Positions 1 to 9,054 of a stretch of 9,054 nt of DNA are shown here, piece after piece. The stretch is from Candidatus Pacearchaeota archaeon ex4484_71 (lineage in GTDB: Archaea > Nanobdellota > Nanobdellia > Pacearchaeales > GW2011-AR1), in NCBI GenBank assembly GCA_002254395.1, contig NJDN01000013.1, forward strand, positions 1-9,054. Reading direction: 5' to 3'. Under the pieces are notes generated by a model that worked only from the letters and a program-made list of their open reading frames with translations, ran no database searches and was not told the origin of the DNA. The position numbers and the translations under genes are program-made. The first letter of the stretch is position 1; every line of letters begins with the position of its first letter.

Positions 1-1777
1 AACCATAATCCCACCAGTGTAAAAAGATTTCTCCTTCAAGGGTATTGCCCCTCACCCAACTCATTGCGTTTTGCCAATCAGGGTTGTACGAAGGGTGTTG
101 GTTTTTTGCCTGATAACTTACAGTCTTATAATGCCCTGCCGAGATGTAAATAATTCCTATTATCATCAAGGCAAATACTATCCATAAAAGAATCCTCGTT
201 GTTTCGTCTTTAGATTTTTTGGCAATTTTCCCGGTTTCAAAAATCGCGGAGGCAACCATGAAGGACATGAAAGGCATCAATGCAAAGAAAACCCTTATAG
301 CAGATCTCACCGAAAGTAACATCGGAATCATCCATGCTATAATTATTATCCATTTAGTTTCTATCTTCCAATCTGATCTGGAATAAATGTATATTGTTGA
401 AACTGCAAATATGAGGAAAGAGATGAAAAAGAAAGCTTTTGACAATCCGTTGTTCCCATTAAGGGCGGAGCTTGAAGATATTCTCGAATAAAGTATCCCT
501 AGCAAGAAGATTGCAAATGAAATCGTGAATAAAGACCTAAAACTTTTTTTCCTAATTCCTTGCGAAACACGCCAACCCACAATAAGTGAACCAACCAAGA
601 AGATGTAATAAAAGACCTTTCCTATTTGGGCTATAAGATCGTTCAAGTATGGTTGAGCATTTTCTGCAACCGTTAAGCTAACCCTTGCAGTCCCAAAAGG
701 ATATATTATTGATTTTAGCATGTGTCCAATCATTGAAAACACATTTCCTACAGCGATCTGGTAAAAGATTGCGCCGATCACAATTGTTATAAGAAGAGAA
801 ATTAATTTTTGATATTTTTTGGTTTTGTCATTAAGAGTTTCTGTTTTTCTAAGAACCCCTTCAACAATAATATAAATCAATGAAACCAAGGTCAAAATAC
901 CACTAAAGTTTAACATATACGATCTTAACACGCCACTTAAAGCATATCCAAAGAACAATGCTCCCACAAAAATTCCAACAATCCACAATCCATAGAAAGA
1001 TATGTTTTTTCTAAGAGAATCTTTCCTTCTTACAAGCCATCTTATTAGGAATGCCAATGGGAAAATCATGAAAAGGAATTTTGCTCCTCCCCCCCAGGCC
1101 GCTATTGCAAACATGGTTGAGAACCCTGCAATGAATCCCACAATTCCTAAATTCAAAGGCTTAGATTTTTTGTCTAGTAAGAATAAACCCCACGTAAATA
1201 ACAAAAGTGCCAGGAAAACCCCCACCATTCCTATTGCCTCGTGATCAGAAAAACCAGCAAGGGTTCTGTAGAGGTATGGCGGAACAATTGTTAGTATGAA
1301 TGATGAAACAATAGCTATCCATTTGTTTTTTGTCAAGAACCATATAAAGAAAAAGAAGATCAATAAGCCCAGTGCAAAAAATATTACCGGATTCAAAACA
1401 TCTGCAAATCTCAATGTTGCTTCTTTAGAGAACGCGTGAATTATTTTATACAATCCTACTGTAGTCTTTGGAAGTATTTCTTTGCTCCATCCAGGGTTTA
1501 GACCCCCGTACCGCATGGAATCTATTTCGGGCAAGTGCCCTCCTGTTTCCATAAGCGTCTGAGAAATTCTTAAGAAATAGTAAGGATCTAGAGCGAGGGG
1601 GGTATACTCTCCTGTTGTTTTATCTATAAGGTTTGGGAGGGGTTGAACTCTAATCCAGACACCAAAGACAAGAATTGCAATTAAAAGGATTATAGCGATT
1701 GTATTCTGAACCTTTTTTTTAGAAAGGAATTTTATTGTTTTTTCATAACTCTCTTTAAAGTCTATCTTATCTGACAT
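1..1777 (-). CDS. aglB: Oligosaccharyltransferase AglB (STT3 family), N-terminal 592 codons; the 3' end and C-terminal domain run off the window
   Basis: Absent from the ORF track because it has no stop inside the window. I checked every minus-strand codon from ATG 1777..1775 down to nt 2 and found no in-frame stop. The translation is a polytopic membrane protein with the STT3/AglB catalytic motifs in canonical order: LDPYYFLR (D64), GFSDHEAIG (D178/E180, cf. eukaryotic STT3 SYDNEGIA), LTVAENAQP (E372, cf. SVSEHQP) and WWDYG at codons 588-592 (nt 16..2). Confidence 0.9.
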   Translation of the reverse strand, partial: MSDKIDFKESYEKTIKFLSKKKVQNTIAIILLIAILVFGVWIRVQPLPNLIDKTTGEYTPLALDPYYFLRISQTLMETGGHLPEIDSMRYGGLNPGWSKEILPKTTVGLYKIIHAFSKEATLRFADVLNPVIFFALGLLIFFFFIWFLTKNKWIAIVSSFILTIVPPYLYRTLAGFSDHEAIGMVGVFLALLLFTWGLFLLDKKSKPLNLGIVGFIAGFSTMFAIAAWGGGAKFLFMIFPLAFLIRWLVRRKDSLRKNISFYGLWIVGIFVGALFFGYALSGVLRSYMLNFSGILTLVSLIYIIVEGVLRKTETLNDKTKKYQKLISLLITIVIGAIFYQIAVGNVFSMIGHMLKSIIYPFGTARVSLTVAENAQPYLNDLIAQIGKVFYYIFLVGSLIVGWRVSQGIRKKSFRSLFTISFAIFLLGILYSRISSSSALNGNNGLSKAFFFISFLIFAVSTIYIYSRSDWKIETKWIIIIAWMIPMLLSVRSAIRVFFALMPFMSFMVASAIFETGKIAKKSKDETTRILLWIVFALMIIGIIYISAGHYKTVSYQAKNQHPSYNPDWQNAMSWVRGNTLEGEIFLHWWDYG

Positions 1778-1797
1778 TTTTTTAACAAGAAAGTTTC

Positions 1798-1806
1798 TTT
1801 TAAAAA
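1798..1806 (-). promoter_or_regulatory. TATA-like box upstream of aglB (sense TTTTTAAAA), predicts a leaderless mRNA
   Basis: A/T box whose proximal edge is 21 nt from the A of ATG 1777. There is no GGAG/GGTG between the box and the ATG. The same element and spacing occur in front of four other first genes. Confidence 0.45.
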
Positions 1807-1822
1807 CCTGTTTATGGCGATT

Positions 1823-2824
1823 CTAGAAGAAAATTACGAATCCAAGCGCGATTATAATTATCTGAAATATGTTTATTAAAAGAGGAACTTCCCACTCGTA
1901 AACTTTCCCGCTTGGTTTTATTTTACCAATTATCTTTATTGCAAGGTGCTCCAATCCGTATATCTTCTTATAAGGGGCTTTTAATGTTCCGTCTCTATTC
2001 AATTTTGCAAAGCTCTCCTTATCCAGCCTGCCTCTAAGTTTTAAAATAGCCTCTATGATGTAAGGTATGAAAAAGAACATAGCAATCATTTCTATATTGC
2101 CAAGAATTGCAATTCCCGCAATCATTGCCCCCACAGCATAGGTTAAAATATCTCCTGGGAAAACTTTTGCAGGGTATTTGTTAAATGGATACAGTGCAAT
2201 CATTGCCATCACCATACACATACTTAAAACACTTAGCCAAGGATTTCCTGTTATGAAGGTAACGACTGCGAGAGAGGTTAAGATTATGATTCCTTGACTA
2301 GTTTCTAAACCATTATATCCTGCAACAAAATTGAAAGTGGTTGTAGCACCAACAATCCCAATTGGGATTACAAGCAATGGGTAGAGCAAACCAATATCTA
2401 TTCCAAATATGGTGGAGGAACCCACATTCAAAACCATTAACGGAACGGCAGAGAATATTAAGAGAATTATCCTGGTCCTTCTACTCAAACCTCTTTTCCA
2501 TCCGAGAAGGTCGTCTACGACTCCTACAAGAGAAGCAAAGAGCAAAACTCCCATTAAAGCAAATATCTCTGGAAGGTGTGTGCTTTCCTTAAATAAGAAT
2601 GTTTTTAGAGCAATGTATAAAAACACCCCTATCGTAAATCCCATCAGCACCGGGATCCCTCCTCCTTCGGCCACCTTTTGGCCATCTTTCTTATGCATAT
2701 CTTTTGAAGTCAGCCCCTCTGTGTGAGCTCTTTTTATCCAGATTGGGAGGACACTAAAAGAAATAAGAAATGAAATCATAAGTATGGGAAAAAACAAGAC
2801 CCCTAAAAATAATAATGTTTCCAT
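1823..2824 (-). CDS. aglH: Polyprenyl/dolichyl-phosphate N-acetylhexosamine-1-phosphate transferase (GPT/Alg7-like, MraY-WecA superfamily; AglH-type)
   Basis: 333-aa multi-TM ORF with ATG start and TAG stop. Motifs are in the eukaryote/archaeon-like form of the family: KDMHKKDGQKVAEGGGI, VVDDLLG (D104 D105), NFVAGYNGLETSQG (cf. DPAGT1/Alg7 NILAGINGLEAGQ) and VFPGDILTY. It lies directly upstream of aglB on the same strand. The exact sugar-nucleotide specificity cannot be read from the sequence. Confidence 0.8.
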   Translation of the reverse strand: METLLFLGVLFFPILMISFLISFSVLPIWIKRAHTEGLTSKDMHKKDGQKVAEGGGIPVLMGFTIGVFLYIALKTFLFKESTHLPEIFALMGVLLFASLVGVVDDLLGWKRGLSRRTRIILLIFSAVPLMVLNVGSSTIFGIDIGLLYPLLVIPIGIVGATTTFNFVAGYNGLETSQGIIILTSLAVVTFITGNPWLSVLSMCMVMAMIALYPFNKYPAKVFPGDILTYAVGAMIAGIAILGNIEMIAMFFFIPYIIEAILKLRGRLDKESFAKLNRDGTLKAPYKKIYGLEHLAIKIIGKIKPSGKVYEWEVPLLINIFQIIIIALGFVIFF

Positions 2825-2846
2825 ATGGGAGATAAAAAACTCGTAC

Positions 2847-2856
2847 TTTTAAATTT
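2847..2856 (-). promoter_or_regulatory. TATA-like box upstream of the aglH-like gene (sense AAATTTAAAA)
   Basis: The proximal edge is 23 nt from the A of ATG 2824. No Shine-Dalgarno-like purine run follows. It lies 4 nt past the stop of the upstream DUF95 gene. Confidence 0.45.
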
Positions 2857-2860
2857 AACC

Positions 2861-3730
2861 TCAGTGGAAAAACATAGGGGTTAGGTAAACTTCCATCAGT
2901 CCCGCAATGATTAAAATGACTATCGAAACGAACAACAAAATAACCACATTTTCAAACACTCTTACGAATTTTCTACTTTTTATTCCATTCCTTATGAGCC
3001 CTACTCCAAGTATTCCTCCTGCAAGCGCAGAAACGAAGTATGCTGCAACTTCTGGCAGGCCATGAATCATATATCTTGAAATTCCCAAAGGGATTCCTGC
3101 AATCTTATATTTTGTGAAGATTCCTATTGCCCCGGCTATCACTGTTGCGTTCCAAGATAAGACAAATATTGCTCCCGCTCCAAACAACAGCGAAAAGAGC
3201 AGAGTGAATATGAGCACATAAATATTATTCTCCAAGATTGAAAAAAATCTCGTAGCTTTTGTAACGTTTCCTGTTGCCTCACTCATCTGAGAAAGATTTT
3301 GGAAGGAATATTGTTGCACACAATGGTCAATAGCTCCTGGGCTATTTATTGCGCAGTATGTTTCAACTTGGGCATTCAATAAATTAAAATCTCCCAAAAC
3401 AATAAACCAGAAAGAGAATGCAACCACAAAACCCAAGAAGAGCCACAAGAAAGCGAGGATGGCATCTTTGTGAACTTTCCAAACATGGATTAACCCTTCA
3501 ATTTCTTCGTCCTTTTTTTCTTCTTTTTTGAATATGTAATACATAAAAGGAAGGGTAAACATAACGCTAAACGTCACAACAATCATTCCTGAAAATTTAG
3601 ACAACACCGGATCTTTTCCAAAGAATAGCATTACTAATAACAATGACAGAGATGCATAGAGAATTCCAATGAAGAACATCTTCCATGGACCCTTCTCAGC
3701 TCTTTTTGGATTTATAAGGGACTCAAGCAT
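2861..3730 (-). CDS. SpoIIM/DUF95-family polytopic membrane protein, function unknown
   Basis: 289-aa ORF with about 7 hydrophobic segments. The C-terminal half carries the DUF95 pattern as I remember it: FFSILENNIYV ... GAGAIFVLSWNATVIAG ... MIHGLPEVAAYFVSALAGGILG (the family HG-x-x-E-x-x-A block). Residues 113-165 (nt 3236..3394) form a predicted external loop with C126, C137 and two N-x-S/T sequons (N145 NLS, N155 NVT). Confidence 0.6.
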   Translation of the reverse strand: MLESLINPKRAEKGPWKMFFIGILYASLSLLLVMLFFGKDPVLSKFSGMIVVTFSVMFTLPFMYYIFKKEEKKDEEIEGLIHVWKVHKDAILAFLWLFLGFVVAFSFWFIVLGDFNLLNAQVETYCAINSPGAIDHCVQQYSFQNLSQMSEATGNVTKATRFFSILENNIYVLIFTLLFSLLFGAGAIFVLSWNATVIAGAIGIFTKYKIAGIPLGISRYMIHGLPEVAAYFVSALAGGILGVGLIRNGIKSRKFVRVFENVVILLFVSIVILIIAGLMEVYLTPMFFH

Positions 3731-3740
3731 ATTTTGATAA

Positions 3741-3761
3741 GTTAAATAGGATTTTTAAAGG
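3741..3761. promoter_or_regulatory. Divergent promoter core: near-palindromic box TTTTTAAA (3752..3759) plus TTAAATA (3742..3748)
   Basis: Read on the minus strand, TTTAAAAA lies 22 nt from ATG 3730 (leaderless geometry). On the plus strand, TTAAATA centred at 3745 would start transcription near 3771. That gives a leader of about 19 nt containing GGTGA (3781..3785) before ATG 3790. Confidence 0.4.
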
Positions 3762-3789
3762 TTCTTGGCTTTTTGTAATTGGTGAAAAG

Positions 3790-4623
3790 ATGGTGATAAA
3801 GAACAAGAGAAAATTCATGAAAGTAGCAAACGATATAAAAGAGATAAAGATTCAAGGCGCAAGAAACATTGCAGGATGGGCTCTTTATGCCTACTTGTTA
3901 AGCCCTACTAAAGAGGCAATGAAAATTCTAAAGTCATTGCGCCCGACAGAACCTATGTTAATGAACGTTCTAAATAAACTTGAAAAGGGAGAGGACCACA
4001 AGAAAATATTAAATCATTTTTTCGAAGCTCAGAAGAAAATAAACAAATTTGTCTTTGATTTAATGGAGGATGAAGAAGTCATATTCACTCATTGCCACTC
4101 TACAAATGTTGTTAAGTCTCTGAAATATGCGAAAAAAAAAGGGAAGAAATTTGAAGTTCACAATACCGAAACTCGTCCCCTATTTCAAGGAAGGAAAACC
4201 GCGCGAGAATTAAAAAAAGCAGGAATAAAAGTAACGATGTTTGTAGACTCTGCATTAGGCGTGGCAATTTCAGGATCTCAAGGAAATAAAAAAGCCACAA
4301 AGGTATTTTTAGGAGCAGATGCTCTTTTAAAAAAAGGGGTTATAAATAAGATTGGTAGCGAGGTAATTGCCCAGGTTGCTAGGGAAGAAGGAGTTCCAGT
4401 ATATATAATCGCAGACTCATGGAAATTCTCTCCAAAAGAGATAAAATTAGAACAAAGAGACTTTGACGAGGTTTGGAAAAATATTCCTCAAAAGTCCCAT
4501 ATAAAGATAAAAAACCCTGCTTTCGAATTTGTTCACAAAAAATACATAAAAGGCGTTATAACAGAATATGGGGTTCTCCCATACAAGAAATTCATAAAAA
4601 AAGCGAGAAAGGAAAATCAGTGA
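3790..4623 (+). CDS. e2b2: eIF-2B alpha/beta/delta-family protein, most likely ribose-1,5-bisphosphate isomerase (formerly annotated aIF-2B subunit 2)
   Basis: 277-aa ORF. Family blocks present: IKIQGARNIA, FTHCHS (C102, nt 4093..4095), NTETRPLFQGR, LGADAL (D177, nt 4318..4320) and INKIGS. GGTGA (3781..3785) lies 4 nt upstream of ATG 3790. An alternative start at M10 (3817) cannot be excluded. The protein is shorter than the roughly 320-aa characterised archaeal members. Confidence 0.7.
   Translation: MVIKNKRKFMKVANDIKEIKIQGARNIAGWALYAYLLSPTKEAMKILKSLRPTEPMLMNVLNKLEKGEDHKKILNHFFEAQKKINKFVFDLMEDEEVIFTHCHSTNVVKSLKYAKKKGKKFEVHNTETRPLFQGRKTARELKKAGIKVTMFVDSALGVAISGSQGNKKATKVFLGADALLKKGVINKIGSEVIAQVAREEGVPVYIIADSWKFSPKEIKLEQRDFDEVWKNIPQKSHIKIKNPAFEFVHKKYIKGVITEYGVLPYKKFIKKARKENQ
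4596..4602 (-). terminator. Possible oligo-T terminator for pfdA (T7 on the minus strand), embedded in the 3' coding end of the convergent gene
   Basis: The minus strand reads TGA-TTTTCCTTTCTCGC-TTTTTTT, so the T7 run starts 15 nt past the pfdA stop. Archaeal RNA polymerase terminates at oligo-T tracts. However, A/T runs are common in this AT-rich, lysine-rich coding sequence. Confidence 0.25.
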
Positions 4624-5036
4624 TGGTGGTGTTCGTGCCCTTCATGGCCTTGATGTAGTTTTTGATGCTCTAAGAATGTTCTAGTAATCTCTTGGTTTAA
4701 ATTTTCTAGTTCTCGGTTTAGATCTACTTTTGAATTCTCTAACTTCTTTATTTGTTCACTTATTATCTCTTTTGTGCCAGGGATTGATTTGTCGACGTAT
4801 GTTTTGTTTCCTATGTCTATTACTAGATCTTCAGAACTAAGCTTTGTCTTTGCATAAACACCTCTTCCTATCGGTGCCAACACTTCTTTTCCTTCATTTC
4901 CTTTTAAGTCATCGAGTGATAAATGCAATTGTTTTAGCTCAACCATTGCTTGGTCTACTGCTTGCAATTGCTGTTGTAAACCCATTATTTGGGATTCAAA
5001 TACTTGAAACTTCCTTTGTAATTCTTGATCGTCCAT
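4617..5036 (-). CDS. pfdA: Prefoldin alpha subunit (GimC alpha) with a His-rich C-terminal tail
   Basis: 139 aa. N- and C-terminal heptad-like coiled-coil arms flank two beta-hairpin blocks, EVLAPIGRGVYAKTKL and LVIDIGNKTYVDKS, which is the alpha-class pattern (beta class has one hairpin). It ends HQKLHQGHEGHEHHHH. Its stop (4617..4619) lies inside the last codons of the convergent plus-strand gene. Confidence 0.8.
   Translation of the reverse strand: MDDQELQRKFQVFESQIMGLQQQLQAVDQAMVELKQLHLSLDDLKGNEGKEVLAPIGRGVYAKTKLSSEDLVIDIGNKTYVDKSIPGTKEIISEQIKKLENSKVDLNRELENLNQEITRTFLEHQKLHQGHEGHEHHHH
4659..4663 (+). terminator. Possible oligo-T terminator for the eIF-2B-family gene (T5), embedded in the pfdA 3' coding region
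   Basis: This is the first T5 run downstream of the TGA at 4621..4623 on the plus strand. The signal is weak and short. Confidence 0.2.
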
Positions 5037-5057
5037 GTTAGTTTTAGAAGTGAGGGG

Positions 5058-5064
5058 TTTTTAA
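5058..5064 (-). promoter_or_regulatory. TATA-like box upstream of pfdA (sense TTAAAAA)
   Basis: The proximal edge is 22 nt from the A of ATG 5036, and there is no SD-like element. Confidence 0.4.
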
Positions 5065-5080
5065 GGTTTTTGTGAGTTCT

Positions 5081-5641
5081 TTAGACAACGTTCATCCACT
5101 TTTTGAGGATGCTCGAGAATATAATCGAAAATATCATGTAAAAAACAACCCATCCCATAAATCCAAGGAATCTTACTGGCTCTCCGGTCTGCGCAGAGAT
5201 TGCGGAGAAGTAATCATTAAACCACCTGAAAATTAAGATAAGAGGTATTCCAGTATATATCATCGACCTCATGCTTAATTTCATTTGTTTTGGCATGAAG
5301 GACATCTGTTTTTTCTGAAGTTCCATTATCTTTTCGGGATGATCTTTAAACTCTTTCATCTGTTTTTGTATTTCTTTTTGTTCTTTTTTCAATTCTTTTA
5401 ATGTCTCTTGATCAGTGGTGTATTTCTGGATAATTGTTATAAGAAAACTAAGGATAAGAACAATCACAAGCATTCCCCATGTGAGGTTCCAATTCAGAAG
5501 CGCTCCGGCGGTGGGGTTGAAAATATATTCTGCTGCATTTTTTATCGCAGGTAGTTTGTCCCATAGAATAACGACTGCAAAAGTAAGAGCCATAATTCCT
5601 ATTATGGGTCCAAAACCTCCTTTTCCCTCTTTATTAGTCAT
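5081..5641 (-). CDS. DUF106 / EMC3-TMCO1-Get1-like membrane protein (archaeal Oxa1/YidC-superfamily insertase candidate, MJ0480-type)
   Basis: 186 aa. The architecture is TM, TM, a lysine/glutamate-rich coiled coil (TDQETLKELKKEQKEIQKQMKEFKDHPEKIMELQKKQM), then TM, TM. This matches the DUF106 layout and its conserved position downstream of secY in archaea. Its ATG (5641..5639) overlaps the secY TGA (5640..5638) as ATGA. Confidence 0.7.
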   Translation of the reverse strand: MTNKEGKGGFGPIIGIMALTFAVVILWDKLPAIKNAAEYIFNPTAGALLNWNLTWGMLVIVLILSFLITIIQKYTTDQETLKELKKEQKEIQKQMKEFKDHPEKIMELQKKQMSFMPKQMKLSMRSMIYTGIPLILIFRWFNDYFSAISAQTGEPVRFLGFMGWVVFYMIFSIIFSSILKKWMNVV

Positions 5642-7035
5642 TTTAAAGCGCTTCCCATGAATTTCTTAATTGCAGGGTTCATATCCTCCATGTGTTGTTT
5701 AGCAATATTTTGGTAGAACTGGAACATAATCATTATCACTAAAAGTATTGCCGTACCTTTCACGAGCGCACCCATTAGGTCTGTGAAAGACGCTAAAAGT
5801 CCAATCGCTGCTCCGCCCATTACTGTAAGAGGCATGATGTATCGGTCAAGTATGCTTTCTAAAACTCTTATGTCTTGTCTAAATCCTGCTACCTGTAATC
5901 CCGAAGAGGCTATTCTCTTCGCCTGAGCCTTTGAATCCATTCCTGATGTTTTAACCCAAAATACCGAGAACAAAGTAGACAGCACAACAAAGAAGAATAT
6001 GTGCGTTATTGCTTGAACAAGGTATCTTGATAGGAAACCCCCTCTTATTATAAGTTCAAGTATGTTCTGAGAATCCAACCAGAATCCCAAACCAGATACT
6101 GCTCTCCCATTTACGAAGTGTCCTAAGAACGTGGCATGTCCTAGCCAGTTTTCGAGCATTCCTCCAAATAATTGAATATTTGCTATAAGTGCGGCAACAA
6201 GTATGACAGGGATAACACTAGAATAGAAAAACGACAATGGCCATTTTACACCGTATCCTCTTATTCTCCCATATGATAATGGAATCTCTACTTTTAAGGA
6301 CTGAGCCCATACTACTGCTAAGAAAATCAAGATTGTCATAACAAGTGCGGCGAACGCGGATACAAATTCTGTTGGATATCTGTTTATTATAGATTGTATC
6401 AACAATAAAACCTTTCCAGAACAAGCAGTATTTCCAAAGTCGACAAGACAATTTTTACCTTGAGCATTTATGAACTGGAATGCACTTGTCATTAATCTCC
6501 AGGAAACCCCTGCACCAATGAATAAACTTACACCTGATCCAAATCCCCATTTTTCAGATAATTCATTCATGTAGTATATCGCAAGTCCACCGAGGACAAG
6601 CTGGAAAATAACAATTCCTTTTAGTCCCGGAGCGGCTTCTAATCCTCTCATTAAAACATAGACTAATGACTCGAAGATTATGAAAAAGAATACGAGTATT
6701 TTCTGTATTCCTTGGAAAAATTTCTTTCCTTCATCAGTGTTTGTGTCAATATTTACAATTCCTGATCCTGTTAAAAGTTGAAGGATAATGGAACCCATAA
6801 CAATTGGTCCAATTCCGAGAGAAATTATGGAACCAAAATCAGTACCTAAAATTATAGCCAAATATTCAAACCTATCAAGGGCGCTTGAAGAAAGGCCAAA
6901 CAATGGAACGTTCGCAAGTATGAAGAATGCCGCCAGAACTATCAATGTCCATTTAAGTTTTACATTGAAACTTAATTTCTTCTCATCAGGACTTTTAACT
7001 TCTGGAATCCATGCGAAAAAGTTTTTCCATTCCAT
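5638..7035 (-). CDS. secY: Protein translocase subunit SecY (Sec61 alpha homologue)
   Basis: 465 aa with about 10 TM segments. The archaeal-type N-terminus is WIPEVKSPDEKKLSFNVKLKWTLIVLAAFFILANVPLFGL. It sits in the canonical position directly downstream of uL15. Confidence 0.95.
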   Translation of the reverse strand: MEWKNFFAWIPEVKSPDEKKLSFNVKLKWTLIVLAAFFILANVPLFGLSSSALDRFEYLAIILGTDFGSIISLGIGPIVMGSIILQLLTGSGIVNIDTNTDEGKKFFQGIQKILVFFFIIFESLVYVLMRGLEAAPGLKGIVIFQLVLGGLAIYYMNELSEKWGFGSGVSLFIGAGVSWRLMTSAFQFINAQGKNCLVDFGNTACSGKVLLLIQSIINRYPTEFVSAFAALVMTILIFLAVVWAQSLKVEIPLSYGRIRGYGVKWPLSFFYSSVIPVILVAALIANIQLFGGMLENWLGHATFLGHFVNGRAVSGLGFWLDSQNILELIIRGGFLSRYLVQAITHIFFFVVLSTLFSVFWVKTSGMDSKAQAKRIASSGLQVAGFRQDIRVLESILDRYIMPLTVMGGAAIGLLASFTDLMGALVKGTAILLVIMIMFQFYQNIAKQHMEDMNPAIKKFMGSALK

Positions 7036-7080: not shown

Positions 7081-7581
7081 TCACTTCTTTCCCTTCTTTT
7101 TTTCATGCTTTGGATTTATTACCAAAGGGGTTTTAATTTCTTTTATTTCTTTAACGATTACTTCTCCGCCTGCTTTTTTTACTTTCTCAATTGCGGATTT
7201 CGACGCCTCAAAACAAGTTATTTTTAACTTTTTATTTACCTCTCCAGATCCAAGAATTTTATACTTCTTGAGCTCCACAATAAAAGAGTCTCCTGATTTT
7301 TTCCCATATTTCTCTATGTTTAGACTTATCTCTCCCACGTTGATTCTTTTTCGAATGTCCCTTTTTGTTCCCATGCTTGTGAAACCCTTTTTACCAAAAT
7401 ATCCGTGCCCGTGGATTTTTTGAATCTTAGTCTTCTTGTGGTCTGCTCTTTTTCCACTTCCAGACATCCCAATTCCCCCTTTATTTCCAGATTTTCTTTT
7501 ATTTTTTCTTGCTCCGCTACCATGAGTCCCCATATTCCTTCCTCTCATTCTTATTGATTTCTTTTTCTTTTTTACTTTCAT
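7081..7581 (-). CDS. rpl15: 50S ribosomal protein uL15 (L15P/L27Ae)
   Basis: 166 aa. The basic, Gly-rich N-terminus (RMRGRNMGTHGSGARKNKRKSGNKGGIGMSGSGKRADHKK) is followed by a YFGKKGF block and KILGSGEV. The ATG overlaps the stop of the upstream gene (TAATG at 7583..7579), and GGAG lies 10 nt upstream. Confidence 0.9.
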   Translation of the reverse strand: MKVKKKKKSIRMRGRNMGTHGSGARKNKRKSGNKGGIGMSGSGKRADHKKTKIQKIHGHGYFGKKGFTSMGTKRDIRKRINVGEISLNIEKYGKKSGDSFIVELKKYKILGSGEVNKKLKITCFEASKSAIEKVKKAGGEVIVKEIKEIKTPLVINPKHEKKKGKK

Positions 7582-7910
7582 TATCTGTTGTCTCCTTCTC
7601 CATGTATTACTTCTCTTTCTTTCCTTGAAGCGAGCTTTTTTATGTTTGTTTGAACGACATCTTCAAAATCAAGGCCCAATTCAGTAGATATTGTAGCGAG
7701 ATACCATAAAACATCTCCTAACTCTTTTTTCATTTCTTCTTTCTTCTGGTCGCTAATTTCTCCATTAAAATCACGCAATATTTTTTTCATCTTTTCTAAA
7801 ACTTCTCCAGCTTCTCCTCCAAGTCCTAGCATAGGATATATAACATTATTGCCTTTGTTTGGATAAACCGCAGTTCCCCATGCTTTTTTTTGATATTCAT
7901 TAAACTCCAT
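7581..7910 (-). CDS. Small all-alpha MazG-family nucleoside triphosphate pyrophosphohydrolase
   Basis: 109 aa. E33-A-G-E36, then 26 residues, then E63-L-G-D66 gives the ExxE-x(12-28)-ExxD metal-binding signature (nt 7713..7814). It also has the DVLWYL helix and the C-terminal NIKKLASRKER..HGEGDNR typical of single-domain MazG/YpjD/phage-type enzymes. Both junctions are 1-nt TAATG overlaps, with uL30 at 7910 and uL15 at 7581. GGAG lies 9 nt upstream of its ATG. Confidence 0.8.
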   Translation of the reverse strand: MEFNEYQKKAWGTAVYPNKGNNVIYPMLGLGGEAGEVLEKMKKILRDFNGEISDQKKEEMKKELGDVLWYLATISTELGLDFEDVVQTNIKKLASRKEREVIHGEGDNR

Positions 7911-8263
7911 TATAACATTCTCCTTATCAAATCATTTATTTTTTCTTTGTTATCTCCTAAAATTCCTTTAGGGAAATGGACTTTTGATTTTATTCCGCCT
8001 CTAGGGGGGTGTAATCTAAAGAACGGTTTTAATTTTCCATCCTTATTCTTTTTTCCTCTCTTTTCTATTAACTCTTTCTTGGTCTCCTCGTCTATTTCTC
8101 CATATGCGGCAAAATTTCTTAATTTAGAAATCATTCCCAAGTTTTCCTTTGTGGGCTCAATTAAAACACAAGTGTATTTCTTTCCAAGTCTAAGTCTTTT
8201 GAATGTCTCTGCGACATCCTTTCTCAGTCCGATTTGTCCCCTTATTCGAATTATTGCTATCAT
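7910..8263 (-). CDS. rpl30: 50S ribosomal protein uL30 (L30P/L7e)
   Basis: Matching blocks: MIAIIRIRGQIGLRKDVAETFKRLRLGKK, GMISKLRNFAAYGEID, FRLHPPRGG and INDLIRRM. I place the start at ATG 8263..8261 (M14 of the track ORF) because it forms an ATGA overlap with the uS5 stop and has GGAG 8 nt upstream. The 13 extra N-terminal residues in the track ORF (start 8302) would overlap uS5 and are not family-like. Confidence 0.85.
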   Translation of the reverse strand: MIAIIRIRGQIGLRKDVAETFKRLRLGKKYTCVLIEPTKENLGMISKLRNFAAYGEIDEETKKELIEKRGKKNKDGKLKPFFRLHPPRGGIKSKVHFPKGILGDNKEKINDLIRRML

Positions 8264-9054
8264 TTTTTCTCTCCGTTTGTTTTCGCTAGCGCATCCATAC
8301 ATGCCTTTATTAAATTGAATGTGGTTCTTTTGTTTCCGAACGTTTTACTATAAACATCTTTTATTCCTGCAAGTCTTAAAACTTTTTTCAATTCCCTTGC
8401 AACAACCAGTCCTGTTCCTTGGGGGGCAGGGATCAAAGTAACTCTAACACTTCCAGACTTTCCGGTAACTTTAAATGGTACTGAATGCGGTTCAGAGCAC
8501 GAACAATCAAAACTAGAACAGTCTCTTGTAACTTTTATAATATTTAATTTTGCTTTTCTAATTGCTTTATCTCTTGCAGGCAGGGTCTCTGTTGCTTTTC
8601 CAACACCAATTCCCACGTGTCCATTCTCATCACCAACGACAGCAAGCGCCGAAAAAGTCAAAACATTACCTTCTTTCGTTTTTCTTTGAGTCTGTCTCCA
8701 AGCTCTTCTTTTTCCTCCACCAAACTTTCCTTTTGCCTGGCCCATCGCTATAAGATCTGATTGAGCATCAATCAAGTTGTCGACAATTTGTTCTTCTAAT
8801 ATCTTTTTGCCTTTATCAAGTATTTCGTCTATGGATTTTATCTTTCCGTCTTTAACATCCCTTCCAAGCTTTGTTTTGGGTTCCCAAACTTCTACAGGTT
8901 CGTCATATCTTCCGCTCTTTTTCTTATCTTCTTTCTCTTCTACTTTCTCGTCTTTATTTATTTTCTCAAAAGCTTTTTTATTTTCCTCGTCTATTTTTTC
9001 GAGAATTTTTTCTTTTTCTTCAGTTTCTTCTTTGATTTCTTCTTTTATCTCTTC
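8260..9054 (-). CDS. rps5: 30S ribosomal protein uS5, 5'-partial (the reading frame is open to the window edge)
   Basis: Core blocks: VGDENGHVGIGVGKA, PHSVPFKVTGKSGSVRVTLIPAPQGTGLV and LAGIKDVYSKTFG. The track start at 8775 is a TTG, not an ATG. The frame continues without a stop or any ATG/GTG/TTG through 9054 and encodes the archaeal/eukaryotic uS5 N-terminal block VEVWEPKTKLGRDVKDGKIKSIDEILDKGKKILEEQIVDNL. That block is preceded by at least 55 residues of K/E-rich sequence. Confidence 0.9.
   Translation of the reverse strand, partial: EEIKEEIKEETEEKEKILEKIDEENKKAFEKINKDEKVEEKEDKKKSGRYDEPVEVWEPKTKLGRDVKDGKIKSIDEILDKGKKILEEQIVDNLIDAQSDLIAMGQAKGKFGGGKRRAWRQTQRKTKEGNVLTFSALAVVGDENGHVGIGVGKATETLPARDKAIRKAKLNIIKVTRDCSSFDCSCSEPHSVPFKVTGKSGSVRVTLIPAPQGTGLVVARELKKVLRLAGIKDVYSKTFGNKRTTFNLIKACMDALAKTNGEKK

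Follow-up and report, generated by a model that had tools for sequence, protein, structure and literature searches.

The ribosomal protein operon of Ca. Pacearchaeota archaeon ex4484_71 carries, between the genes for uL30 and uL15, a 109-aa ORF (7581-7910) which is predicted to encode a genuine single-domain MazG-type NTP pyrophosphohydrolase, and the order uL30-MazG-uL15 is found in at least 13 Pacearchaeota- or Woesearchaeota-like lineages. We consider it probable that this MazG is an accessory, horizontally exchanged single-domain (d)NTP house-cleaning enzyme, a passenger of the uL30|uL15 slot that borrows the expression of the ribosomal operon. As an enzyme, MazG is an unremarkable representative of a very large family; it is the location, rather than the enzyme, that is less ordinary. 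The window, i.e. the whole analysed stretch of 9,054 nucleotides, comes from contig NJDN01000013.1 and contains the following features:

8260..9054, minus strand: uS5 gene, 3' part (Pfam Ribosomal_S5 and S5_C; translation open to the window end)
7910..8263, minus strand: uL30 gene, 117 aa (Pfam PF00327, NCBIfam uL30_arch, gene call L001 2479-2832)
7920..7923, minus strand: GGAG, Shine-Dalgarno-like, within the uL30 coding sequence, 9 nt 5' of the MazG ATG
7908..7912, minus strand: TAATG junction of uL30 stop and MazG start, 1-nt overlap (read from sequence)
7581..7910, minus strand: predicted MazG-type NTP pyrophosphohydrolase, 109 aa, single-domain, all-alpha (PF03819, phrog_229, AF2, Foldseek)
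7803..7814, minus strand: codons of E33-A-G-E36, first metal-binding motif (ExxE), invariant in 35 family members
7713..7724, minus strand: codons of E63-L-G-D66, second metal-binding motif (ExxD), invariant in 35 family members
7592..7595, minus strand: GGAG within the C-terminal codons of MazG (..GEGDNR and stop), 10 nt 5' of the uL15 ATG
7579..7583, minus strand: TAATG junction of MazG stop and uL15 start, 1-nt overlap (read from sequence)
7081..7581, minus strand: uL15 gene, 166 aa (Pfam PF00828 and alignment)
5638..7035, minus strand: SecY gene (Pfam; same order in L004 and L008)
5081-5641: EMC3/DUF106-like gene, after SecY (Pfam; same order in L004 and L008)
4617-5036: prefoldin alpha gene, after the EMC3/DUF106-like gene (Pfam; same order in L004 and L008)

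An earlier reading made from the sequence alone (the sequence-only reading) had placed a 109-aa ORF with an ExxE-x26-ExxD signature between uL30 and uL15, and this is borne out by the ORF at 7581..7910, by a regular-expression search, which gave the same spacing of 26 residues between the two motifs, and by the Pfam assignment of the neighbors. Since three independent assemblies (L001-L003) show an identical gene string around MazG, the arrangement is not an assembly artefact. The base composition of MazG resembles that of its neighbors, as had also been noted (GC 0.342, against 0.336 in uL30 and 0.349 in uL15), with a somewhat lower GC3 (0.245 vs 0.31-0.33). An Rfam search of the window gave no match. 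The same reading had drawn attention to the missing nucleotide kinase genes adk and cmk: neither was found in the window by the Pfam scan, but their absence has no evident link to MazG, because three relatives which lack MazG (L177-L179) are equally without adk and cmk after SecY.

The identity of the enzyme was examined at the level of profiles, predicted structure and residue conservation. PF03819 was matched with E 1e-13 and 51.7 bits, well over its cutoff of 22, while PF12643 scored 24.7, under its cutoff of 27; phrog_229 was matched with E 1e-38, a homologue search returned 1372 homologues of the 109-aa protein, and models of the tandem type stayed under their cutoffs (TIGR00444 20.7 vs 148.3, PRK09562 28.8 vs 208). 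The AF2 monomer model (pLDDT 92.8) consists of four helices (residues 3-12, 24-48, 54-77 and 82-99), in agreement with the four-helix MazG fold that had been anticipated. In Foldseek the best 50 matches in the PDB were all MazG-like or HisE-like and those in BFVD were MazG-like, with a probability of 1.0 for BcMazG, YpjD, iMazG, DCTPP1, Sso MazG and DR2231 and a TM of 0.90 for the MazG of mycobacteriophage DS6A. A profile built from the MazG alignment matched PDB entries 5ie9, 2gta, 3cra and 2q73. The acidic residues E33, E36, E63 and D66 are invariant in 35/35 family homologues and in 14/14 operon-embedded orthologues, and the C-terminus HG(S/E)GDNR is nearly invariant across the family, so that both the intact motif and the family-typical C-terminus stand as first described. 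The operon copies evolve under purifying selection (median dN/dS 0.14), and their mean identity is 0.68 for MazG, 0.67 for SecY, 0.60 for uL15 and 0.58 for uL30. The predicted reaction is the conversion of (d)NTP to (d)NMP and PPi, which would take place at the Mg2+-binding E-x-x-E...E-x-x-D site of the four-helix bundle.

The same bundle of about 100 aa, with ExxE...ExxD and PF03819, is present in YpjD (2gta), Bacillus-conserved MazG (5ie9), iMazG (2q73/2q5z) and the MazG proteins of phages DS6A and S-PM2. The archaeal protein differs from these single-domain relatives by the subtype signature G31/L38 and by an invariant HGxGDNR C-terminus, and it is distant from them, with 17-25% identity to the solved structures and at most 51% to phage proteins. 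Like the integron iMazG it resembles a mobile single-ORF cassette, but its home is a ribosomal protein operon instead of an integron or a phage replication module, and it has no attC-like element. The E. coli-type MazG belongs to the same superfamily, and its C-terminal domain in 3cra is weakly matched at the sequence level; that enzyme, however, has two domains and about 265 aa, is linked to mazEFG and is (p)ppGpp-related, whereas here there is one domain of 109 aa in an archaeal host, and neither mazE nor mazF was found among the Pfam-scanned ORFs of the window. DCTPP1/RS21-C6 and DR2231, which are specific for dCTP/dUTP, match the fold with a probability of about 1.0 and TM of about 0.55-0.65; with about 20% identity they are a plausible analogue for dNTP house-cleaning, but their specificity is not transferable.

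At both junctions there is no intergenic DNA at all, in a genome of about 35% GC. The uL30 stop TAA (7912-7910) and the MazG ATG (7910-7908) have A7910 in common, and the MazG stop TAA (7583-7581) and the uL15 ATG (7581-7579) have A7581 in common, so the TAATG overlaps with GGAG 9-10 nt upstream are as the sequence-only reading had them. Its view of the first GGAG as a site of MazG's own has to be abandoned: the motif falls within the conserved codons at the end of uL30 (here ...AGG AGA ATG TTA TAA) and precedes any following gene, uL15 included. This 3' end of uL30, ...GA(G/A)GATGTTrTAA, encoding RRML or ERML before the stop, shows nucleotide-level conservation across more than 70 loci whatever gene comes next, and in lineages with an empty slot the equivalent GAGG/GGAG stands upstream of uL15. 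In a promoter and terminator scan, sigma-70 sites were no more frequent than in shuffled sequence, the sigma-70 model being in any case inapplicable to archaea. In the 13 lineages the spacer to the left of the operon MazG measures 0-5 nt, and that to its right is usually 0-3 nt long. As such tight packing, with no space for a promoter of its own, is kept in all of them, it is reasonable to infer from the anatomy of the locus that MazG is co-transcribed and translationally coupled with uL30 and uL15. With neither a promoter nor a ribosome-binding site of its own, MazG would be transcribed by read-through from the operon promoter, and its translation would restart at the TAATG overlap using the GGAG in the last codons of uL30. 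The same embedded GGAG would serve uL15 when the slot is empty, and a GGAG from the conserved C-terminal codons of MazG would do so when it is occupied. The level of MazG would then be constitutive and growth-coupled through the expression of the ribosomal operon.

The insertion is no peculiarity of ex4484_71, given the number of lineages that share it (L001, L004, L007, L008, L089, L091, L095, L100, L112, L120, L140, L142 and L152). Two of these (L095 and L091) are the deepest branches of the ribosomal protein tree and the others are scattered. The expectation that the gene order was previously undescribed agrees with the searchable literature, in which no paper was found on the uL30-MazG-uL15 order or on MazG in DPANN, Pacearchaeota, Woesearchaeota or a ribosomal protein operon; a preprint on complete Nanobdellota genomes (10.64898/2026.05.13.725050) mentions neither MazG nor this operon. 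A scan of GTDB with the MazG alignment showed, among the matches listed, a huge family which is mostly bacterial or viral; these matches were non-ribosomal, mostly CPR-bacterial and phage-like, and none of them had uL30/uL15 flanks. Taxon labels proved to be unreliable, as the "Patescibacteria" entry P0054 actually lies on an archaeal ribosomal protein contig and the "Pacearchaeota" entries L030 and L049 hold bacterial-type genes (MreB-, HU- and MnmA-like).

Related metagenomic loci give an impression of how the slot is used, their frequencies being rough because the 74 loci are matches listed, with near-duplicate contigs included. No passenger was present in 46/74, where uL30 and uL15 either abut (at most 60 nt, 43/74) or are separated by a spacer of 61-200 nt (3/74); direct adjacency is thus the commonest state among relatives, as had been supposed. 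MazG occupies the slot in 5/74 and is therefore far from universal there, relatives of L095 being also without it. In the remaining 23/74 other ORFs, belonging to at least 17 small and unrelated families, stand at the same position, which with MazG makes at least 18 unrelated families; among them are a GIY-YIG nuclease (L169) and many ORFans, for instance a 126-aa family and ORFans of 221 and 83 aa. MazG is the most recurrent passenger. Other passengers of archaeal ribosomal superoperons (SecY, adk, cmk, DUF106/EMC3-like, enolase, SUI1) are likewise presumed to be co-expressed with ribosomal proteins, and enolase is a documented precedent for an enzyme gene in this setting (PMC4390880, PMC2588523). 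These passengers are broadly conserved in fixed positions, whereas MazG is patchy and splits the uL30-uL15 pair, its place being taken elsewhere, to the nucleotide, by the unrelated ORFs. A more far-reaching and tentative interpretation, which we regard as rather unlikely, is that uL30|uL15 is a true cassette slot. Units consisting of an ORF only would enter it, replace one another and pass between lineages with stop-to-ATG precision, reusing the ribosome-binding site of uL30, and MazG would be the most successful cassette in an integron-like system for accessory genes that lacks promoters and resides in the cell's most conserved operon. Neighboring junctions of the spc-like operon may, to a lesser degree, be part of it, and the GIY-YIG ORF in the same slot in L169 makes homing-type targeting possible. 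An integron-type gene cassette was rejected as a model, there being no attC-like repeat or hairpin, no integrase and an insert that is the ORF alone. No consistent border repeats or hairpins were seen at the cassette edges in the window, L095 and L007, and no recombination machinery, integrase included, in the gene calls or the ORFs scanned with Pfam.

The clearest case of gain is the Woesearchaeota-like L095 lineage. Its insert comprises nothing but ATG..TAA and a further 1-2 nt, while in its relatives L177-L179 (SecY 84, 73 and 70% identical) the slot is empty; this lineage gained exactly the MazG ORF and the relatives keep the empty site. Other sister pairs in which one slot is empty and the other filled are L115/L118, L136/L153, L141/L143 and L100/L114. 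We picture MazG as having been captured into the uL30|uL15 slot, the ORF alone being the unit inserted, and as having then spread among lineages, probably by exchange, and been lost or replaced in others. An ancient vertical member, with a single entry in the ancestor of Pacearchaeota and Woesearchaeota followed by many losses and replacements and no horizontal exchange at all, appears unlikely to us. It would fit the distribution of carriers, which takes in the two deepest branches along with many scattered lineages, the grouping of operon MazGs in NJ trees with G31 and L38 in common, and the nucleotide identity between copies, which is 0.66-0.78 throughout and indicates no recent transfer. 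It fits poorly with the weak correlation of MazG and flank identities across operon copies (Spearman 0.23-0.29). The MazG of L095 is 77-81% identical to those of L140 and L152 (81% to the latter), but the ribosomal proteins and SecY only 38-60% (39-55% for uL30, uL15 and SecY against L152), and conversely L001 and L100, close by their ribosomal proteins, have MazG identity of only 69%. The empty site in three successive relatives of L095 would moreover require several precise and independent deletions. The discordance between MazG and its flanks could nevertheless be due in part to the strong constraint under which a short protein evolves.

A single capture is not established either, because bootstrap for monophyly of the operon MazGs is low (14/100) and the G31/L38 signature also occurs in 17/43 viral MazGs from IMG/VR and in one archaeal MazG that is not operon-embedded (P0055/L260); for the same reason the signature was discarded as a proxy for operon embedding. 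In NJ trees viral sequences are nearest to the operon MazGs, but it is with CPR sequences that these share the highest overall identity. A viral vector was rejected, since viral contigs of IMG/VR contained no archaeal-type MazG (best at most 60% identity) and no ribosomal proteins.

Concerning the role of MazG, it most likely serves to balance or clean up the (d)NTP pool of a cell that scavenges nucleotides; (d)NTP as the substrate class is suggested by analogy with phage enzymes, in a superfamily whose specificity is unpredictable from sequence. Even the closest of the characterised proteins are remote (17-25% identity in Foldseek alignments to solved structures), and the phage proteins with up to 51% identity are uncharacterised. 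Phage homologues sit in replication modules beside DNA pol I, RNR or helicase genes, and the MazG of cyanophage S-PM2, the one phage enzyme of this type to have been characterised, acts preferentially on dGTP and dCTP and did not hydrolyse (p)ppGpp (PMC6850273). Hydrolysis of alarmones, one of the roles raised in the sequence-only reading, is thus without support, the archaeal protein being of the single-domain phage/CPR type. A link to the ribosome or translation, with MazG as a dosage-matched partner which clears damaged GTP/NTP, hydrolyses an alarmone-like nucleotide or binds the ribosome, is suggested by its embedded and apparently translationally coupled place in a core ribosomal protein string of 13 lineages and by a rate of evolution about as slow as that of the adjacent ribosomal proteins. 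It is nonetheless highly improbable, as the variable slot, the few loci with MazG among those listed, the more numerous ones with unrelated ORFs instead and the absence from close relatives argue against a ribosome-associated or obligatory role, and the same subtype exists outside the operon in the archaeon L260 and in the replication modules of phages.

A hypervariable slot flanked by conserved genes is a typical feature of defence or moron loci. A selfish or virus-derived hitchhiker without benefit to the cell, or an antiviral or counter-defence gene in a variable "island" slot, would accord with the GIY-YIG nuclease and ORFans in the same position, with the phrog_229 match and with signature relatives in a phage-like replication module (L018) and among viral MazGs. 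We judge this very unlikely, given the strong purifying selection, the invariant catalytic residues, the absence of other viral genes nearby (window, L001) and the lack of archaeal-type MazG on viral contigs. A known anti-phage defence system was dismissed, as PADLOC-DB models gave no match (E <= 0.01) for MazG or nine other passengers.

Under the preferred reading of an exchanged house-cleaning passenger, the recurrence of MazG in the slot together with purifying selection suggests that cells scavenging host nucleotides benefit from control over the (d)NTP pool but can do without it. The tail of the ribosomal operon in these reduced-genome DPANN archaea accommodates precisely inserted single ORFs that lack promoters and seems to take them up time after time, and ORFs so inserted would inherit strong, growth-coupled expression. 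If the slot has a dedicated insertion mechanism, this would be a new route by which minimal genomes gain accessory genes and have them expressed with no need of regulatory DNA. The ribosomal protein synteny blocks of DPANN, used in binning and phylogenomics, are less rigid than often assumed. A minor observation from the same locus is that uS5, according to the gene call in the full contig (L001), has 300 aa and an E/K-rich N-terminal extension.

The sequence-only reading had placed a MazG gene between those of uL30 and uL15, and the ORF calls and Pfam matches of the window agree with it, the genes lying on the minus strand. The features are as follows (Pfam or gene identification for the neighbours, ORF call and Pfam for MazG, reading of the coding strand for the overlaps and GGAG sites):

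8260 to beyond 9054, minus strand: uS5
7910-8263, minus strand: uL30
7923-7920, minus strand: GGAG, 9 nt upstream of the MazG ATG
7912-7908, minus strand: TAATG stop/start overlap of uL30 and MazG
7581-7910, minus strand: MazG ORF, 109 aa
7595-7592, minus strand: GGAG, 10 nt upstream of the uL15 ATG
7583-7579, minus strand: TAATG stop/start overlap of MazG and uL15
7081-7581, minus strand: uL15
5638-7035, minus strand: SecY
5081-5641, minus strand: EMC3/DUF106-like membrane protein
4617-5036, minus strand: prefoldin alpha

Both overlaps and the positions of the GGAG sites are as had been noted, as are the complete metal-binding signature (E33-x-x-E36 and E63-x-x-D66, with 26 residues between) and the absence of adk and cmk, neither of which follows SecY in the window. 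The claim of a neighbour-like composition holds for GC (0.342 in MazG vs. 0.336 and 0.349 in the neighbours), less so for GC3, which is slightly lower in MazG. The same protein and gene string were found, identical, on three independent assemblies; the database entry reads hypothetical protein, Candidatus Pacearchaeota archaeon ex4484_71. Elsewhere in the string, uS5 has a long E/K-rich N-terminal extension (EEIKEEIKEETEEKEK..., window 8776-9054 and beyond); the full-contig protein has 300 aa and its counterparts in relatives 259-306 aa, typical archaeal uS5 being shorter. Prefoldin alpha has a His-rich C-terminal tail (...HQGHEGHEHHHH) and its 3' end overlaps by 7 nt the convergent IF-2B-family gene (3790-4623, plus strand).

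The identification of the protein as MazG was right. It matches PF03819, the Pfam MazG family, with E 1e-13 (51.7 bits vs. a cutoff of 22), scores below the Pfam cutoff for PF12643, and matches phrog_229 of PHROGs (MazG-like pyrophosphatase) with E 1e-38. A profile of 35 homologues matches in PDB the Bacillus MazG (5ie9), B. subtilis YpjD (2gta), E. coli MazG (3cra) and the integron iMazG (2q73). The AlphaFold2 model on the same alignment has four helices (pLDDT 92.8), and its best 50 Foldseek matches in PDB are without exception all-alpha NTP-PPases, including BcMazG, YpjD, iMazG, DCTPP1/RS21-C6, Sulfolobus MazG (1vmg), DR2231 and HisE; the best viral match is the MazG of mycobacteriophage DS6A (TM 0.90, 44% identity). 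While E. coli-type MazG has tandem domains, the window protein has one and misses the thresholds of the tandem-domain models. Because of this, and of the Pfam, PHROGs, profile and fold matches, it is a MazG of the single-domain, phage/CPR type. It adds a new member to a well-known family with 1372 database clusters of homologues, at least 600 matches in GTDB genomes (among those listed mostly Patescibacteria, Chloroflexi, Prochlorococcus and Alistipes) and homologues in 407 phage genomes (identity up to 51%), typically in replication modules adjoining DNA polymerase I. A biochemically characterised phage enzyme of this single-domain kind, the MazG of cyanophage S-PM2, prefers dGTP and dCTP and neither binds nor hydrolyses (p)ppGpp (PMC6850273).

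The gene order is not a peculiarity of one archaeon. Contigs encoding homologues show uL30-MazG-uL15 in six further distinct lineages (L004, L007, L008, L089, L091 and L095), each present on at least two independent contigs and with a MazG 78% to 61% identical to that of the window. L007, 535 kb long, comes from Pacearchaeota KatS3mg001, and the SecY of L095 is closest to "Nanoarchaeota" and "Woesearchaeota" entries. The public label of L008, whose MazG (P0054) is listed at NCBI as a "Patescibacteria group bacterium" protein, is wrong or doubtful, the contig being full of archaeal r-protein genes. A homologue of another sequence flavour, P0030, has a bacterial gene context. Also doubtful are the "Pacearchaeota" labels of two other contigs with bacterial-type genes, L030 (MreB-like) and L049 (HU-, PBP- and MnmA-like).

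The more interesting result came from the converse survey, in which metagenome contigs were scanned with a uL15 alignment and 80 loci among the matches listed (uL15 51-73% identical to that of the window) were classified, 74 of them with both uL30 and uL15. Occupancies are rough, among matches listed and with some near-duplicate contigs included: uL30 abuts uL15 (60 nt or less) in 43/74, a spacer of 61-200 nt separates them in 3, MazG lies between them in 5 (L100, L112, L140, L142, L152), and in the remaining 23 a different same-strand ORF fills the gap exactly. MazG occupies this slot also in the incomplete locus L120. In L147 the order is uL30-uL15-MazG (1455-2260, MazG 68 nt past uL15), therefore the same passenger can occupy the next junction too. 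The non-MazG passengers belong to at least 17 unrelated families, so that with MazG at least 18 unrelated same-strand small ORFs were found at this junction (loci L097-L176), which corresponds to 7581-7912 of the window. They include a DUF5680 protein, a 2-thiouracil desulfurase (PF04463), a GIY-YIG nuclease, a 126-aa family and many ORFans; 17 representatives were scanned against Pfam, 14 of them without a match. With the neighbouring junctions as a control, inserts larger than 200 nt are present in 28/74 of the loci listed at uL30/uL15, vs. 6/59 at uS5/uL30 (L097, L098, L113, L145, L146, L165) and 12/55 at uL15/SecY (L109, L117, L119, L131, L154, L176 and others). In this group the distal operon is porous in general, with uL30/uL15 as the favoured slot, a pattern beyond the sequence-only reading. 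Non-ribosomal passengers in r-protein clusters are a known concept; in the searchable literature we found neither a report of MazG at the uL30/uL15 junction nor one of a variable passenger slot there. Further insertions are a PIN-domain gene that separates SecY from the EMC3-like gene (L089, 6531-7939) and, in L091 (140-325 and 1246-1548), small ORFs between S14/S8 and L6/L32e. In L166 (about 2400-2500) and L176 (about 675-747) a non-coding spacer of 73-102 nt comes after the uL30 stop, here TAG; both spacers open with a shared G+C-rich string (cgaggggacaccc...), unlike the AT-rich surroundings, which may be a small structured element.

In all loci the last ~30 nt of uL30 (...aaaataaatgaTTTgaTTnnGA(G/A)GATGTTrTAA) are conserved in nucleotide sequence, and the following gene, be it uL15, MazG or other, starts 0-5 nt past the stop or overlaps it. 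Because this tail is conserved whatever gene follows, the GGAG noted before MazG is the ancestral uL15 ribosome-binding site within the uL30 RRML*/ERML* codons and was not brought by MazG. Passenger stops lie 0-3 nt from the uL15 ATG, or overlap it, in most loci. Near-identical sister contigs differ solely by the presence of the insert: the empty junction of L115 reads GGAGAATGTTATAATGACAATC and the filled one of L118 ...GTTATAAAATG(114-aa ORF)...AAAAAAATGACAATC, and among Woesearchaeota-like contigs the empty L177 reads gatgatttaa-aatgataaataaaag and the filled L095 gatgatttaa-t-(ATG-MazG-TAA)-aatgataaataaaag. Only the ORF has been inserted. No recurrent direct or inverted repeats were found at the insert borders, and no integrase or transposase is nearby among the Pfam-scanned window ORFs and the gene calls of the full contig. 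By eye, the 20 nt before the last uL30 codons of L095 (3967-3999) resemble the Pacearchaeota-type sequence of L152 more than that of L177, the relative of L095, whereas the last 10 nt are of the native type; this may reflect a short recombination tract or chance.

The MazG passenger is under purifying selection: the ExxE-x26-ExxD motif is kept in 14/14 operon copies, median pairwise NG86 values are dN 0.21, dS 1.55 (near saturation) and omega 0.14, and mean identity among the copies (0.68) is comparable to SecY and above uL30 or uL15. Strictly vertical inheritance with many losses is the less well supported account of its history. Operon MazGs do form one cluster in the NJ trees, with a bootstrap of 14/100. 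However, on the NJ tree of uS5, uL30 and uL15 the carriers are scattered beside empty and otherwise-filled relatives, and MazG identity correlates weakly with that of the flanks (Spearman 0.23-0.29). Between L095 and L152 identity is 81% in MazG but 39% in uL30, 45% in uL15 and 55% in SecY; the flanks of L095 are native (nucleotide identity 77-81% to L177 vs. 63-64% to L152) and the slot is empty in all three of its closest relatives retrieved (SecY 84%, 73% and 70% identical). These comparisons suggest a history that was not simply vertical, with a phage or CPR bacterium as candidate donor. G31 and L38, beside the metal site, are present in 14/14 operon MazGs vs. 1/81 and 2/81 other cellular homologues; the pair marks 53 of the best 120 database clusters, and 7/8 signature-bearing clusters checked are operon-embedded. 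As an exclusive signature it is ruled out by 17/43 IMG/VR viral MazGs (a pattern-biased sample), by L260, an archaeal-looking contig with such a MazG (4001-4336) outside any r-protein operon, and by a phage-like replication module in L018. The latter (662-5763, in a MAG labelled Hyphomonadaceae) encodes the MazG whose signature comes closest to the archaeal type, in the order 5'-3' exonuclease, DnaB-like helicase, MazG, Cys-rich HNH-like ORF, class II ribonucleotide reductase. Among the matches listed in the IMG/VR scan no archaeal-type copy was found on viral contigs. L260 also encodes a second MazG paralogue of 104 aa (5212-5526) 0.9 kb away, as well as ZPR1, BpsA_C and thiolase/HMG-CoA-synthase-like genes; one of its proteins is P0055.

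The protein is predicted to act as a Mg2+-dependent (d)NTP pyrophosphohydrolase. Transcription of the r-protein operon would read through the MazG gene and translation would re-initiate at TAATG, with the ribosome-binding site in the uL30 tail, while the conserved C-terminal codons of MazG (GxGDNR*) would supply the GGAG to uL15; the level of MazG should follow ribosomal-protein expression. No finding links its function to the ribosome, and the special ribosome-coupled role proposed earlier is not supported. A translation-linked role is less well supported, as is a selfish or defence-related hitchhiker, which has no PADLOC match. Because of its patchy presence, replacement by unrelated ORFs, occurrence outside the operon and kinship to enzymes of phage replication modules, MazG is best seen as an accessory enzyme in an expression niche, for house-cleaning or for shaping the dNTP pool. 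Enolase is a precedent for an enzyme in a "ribosomal superoperon" (PMC4390880; PMC2588523).
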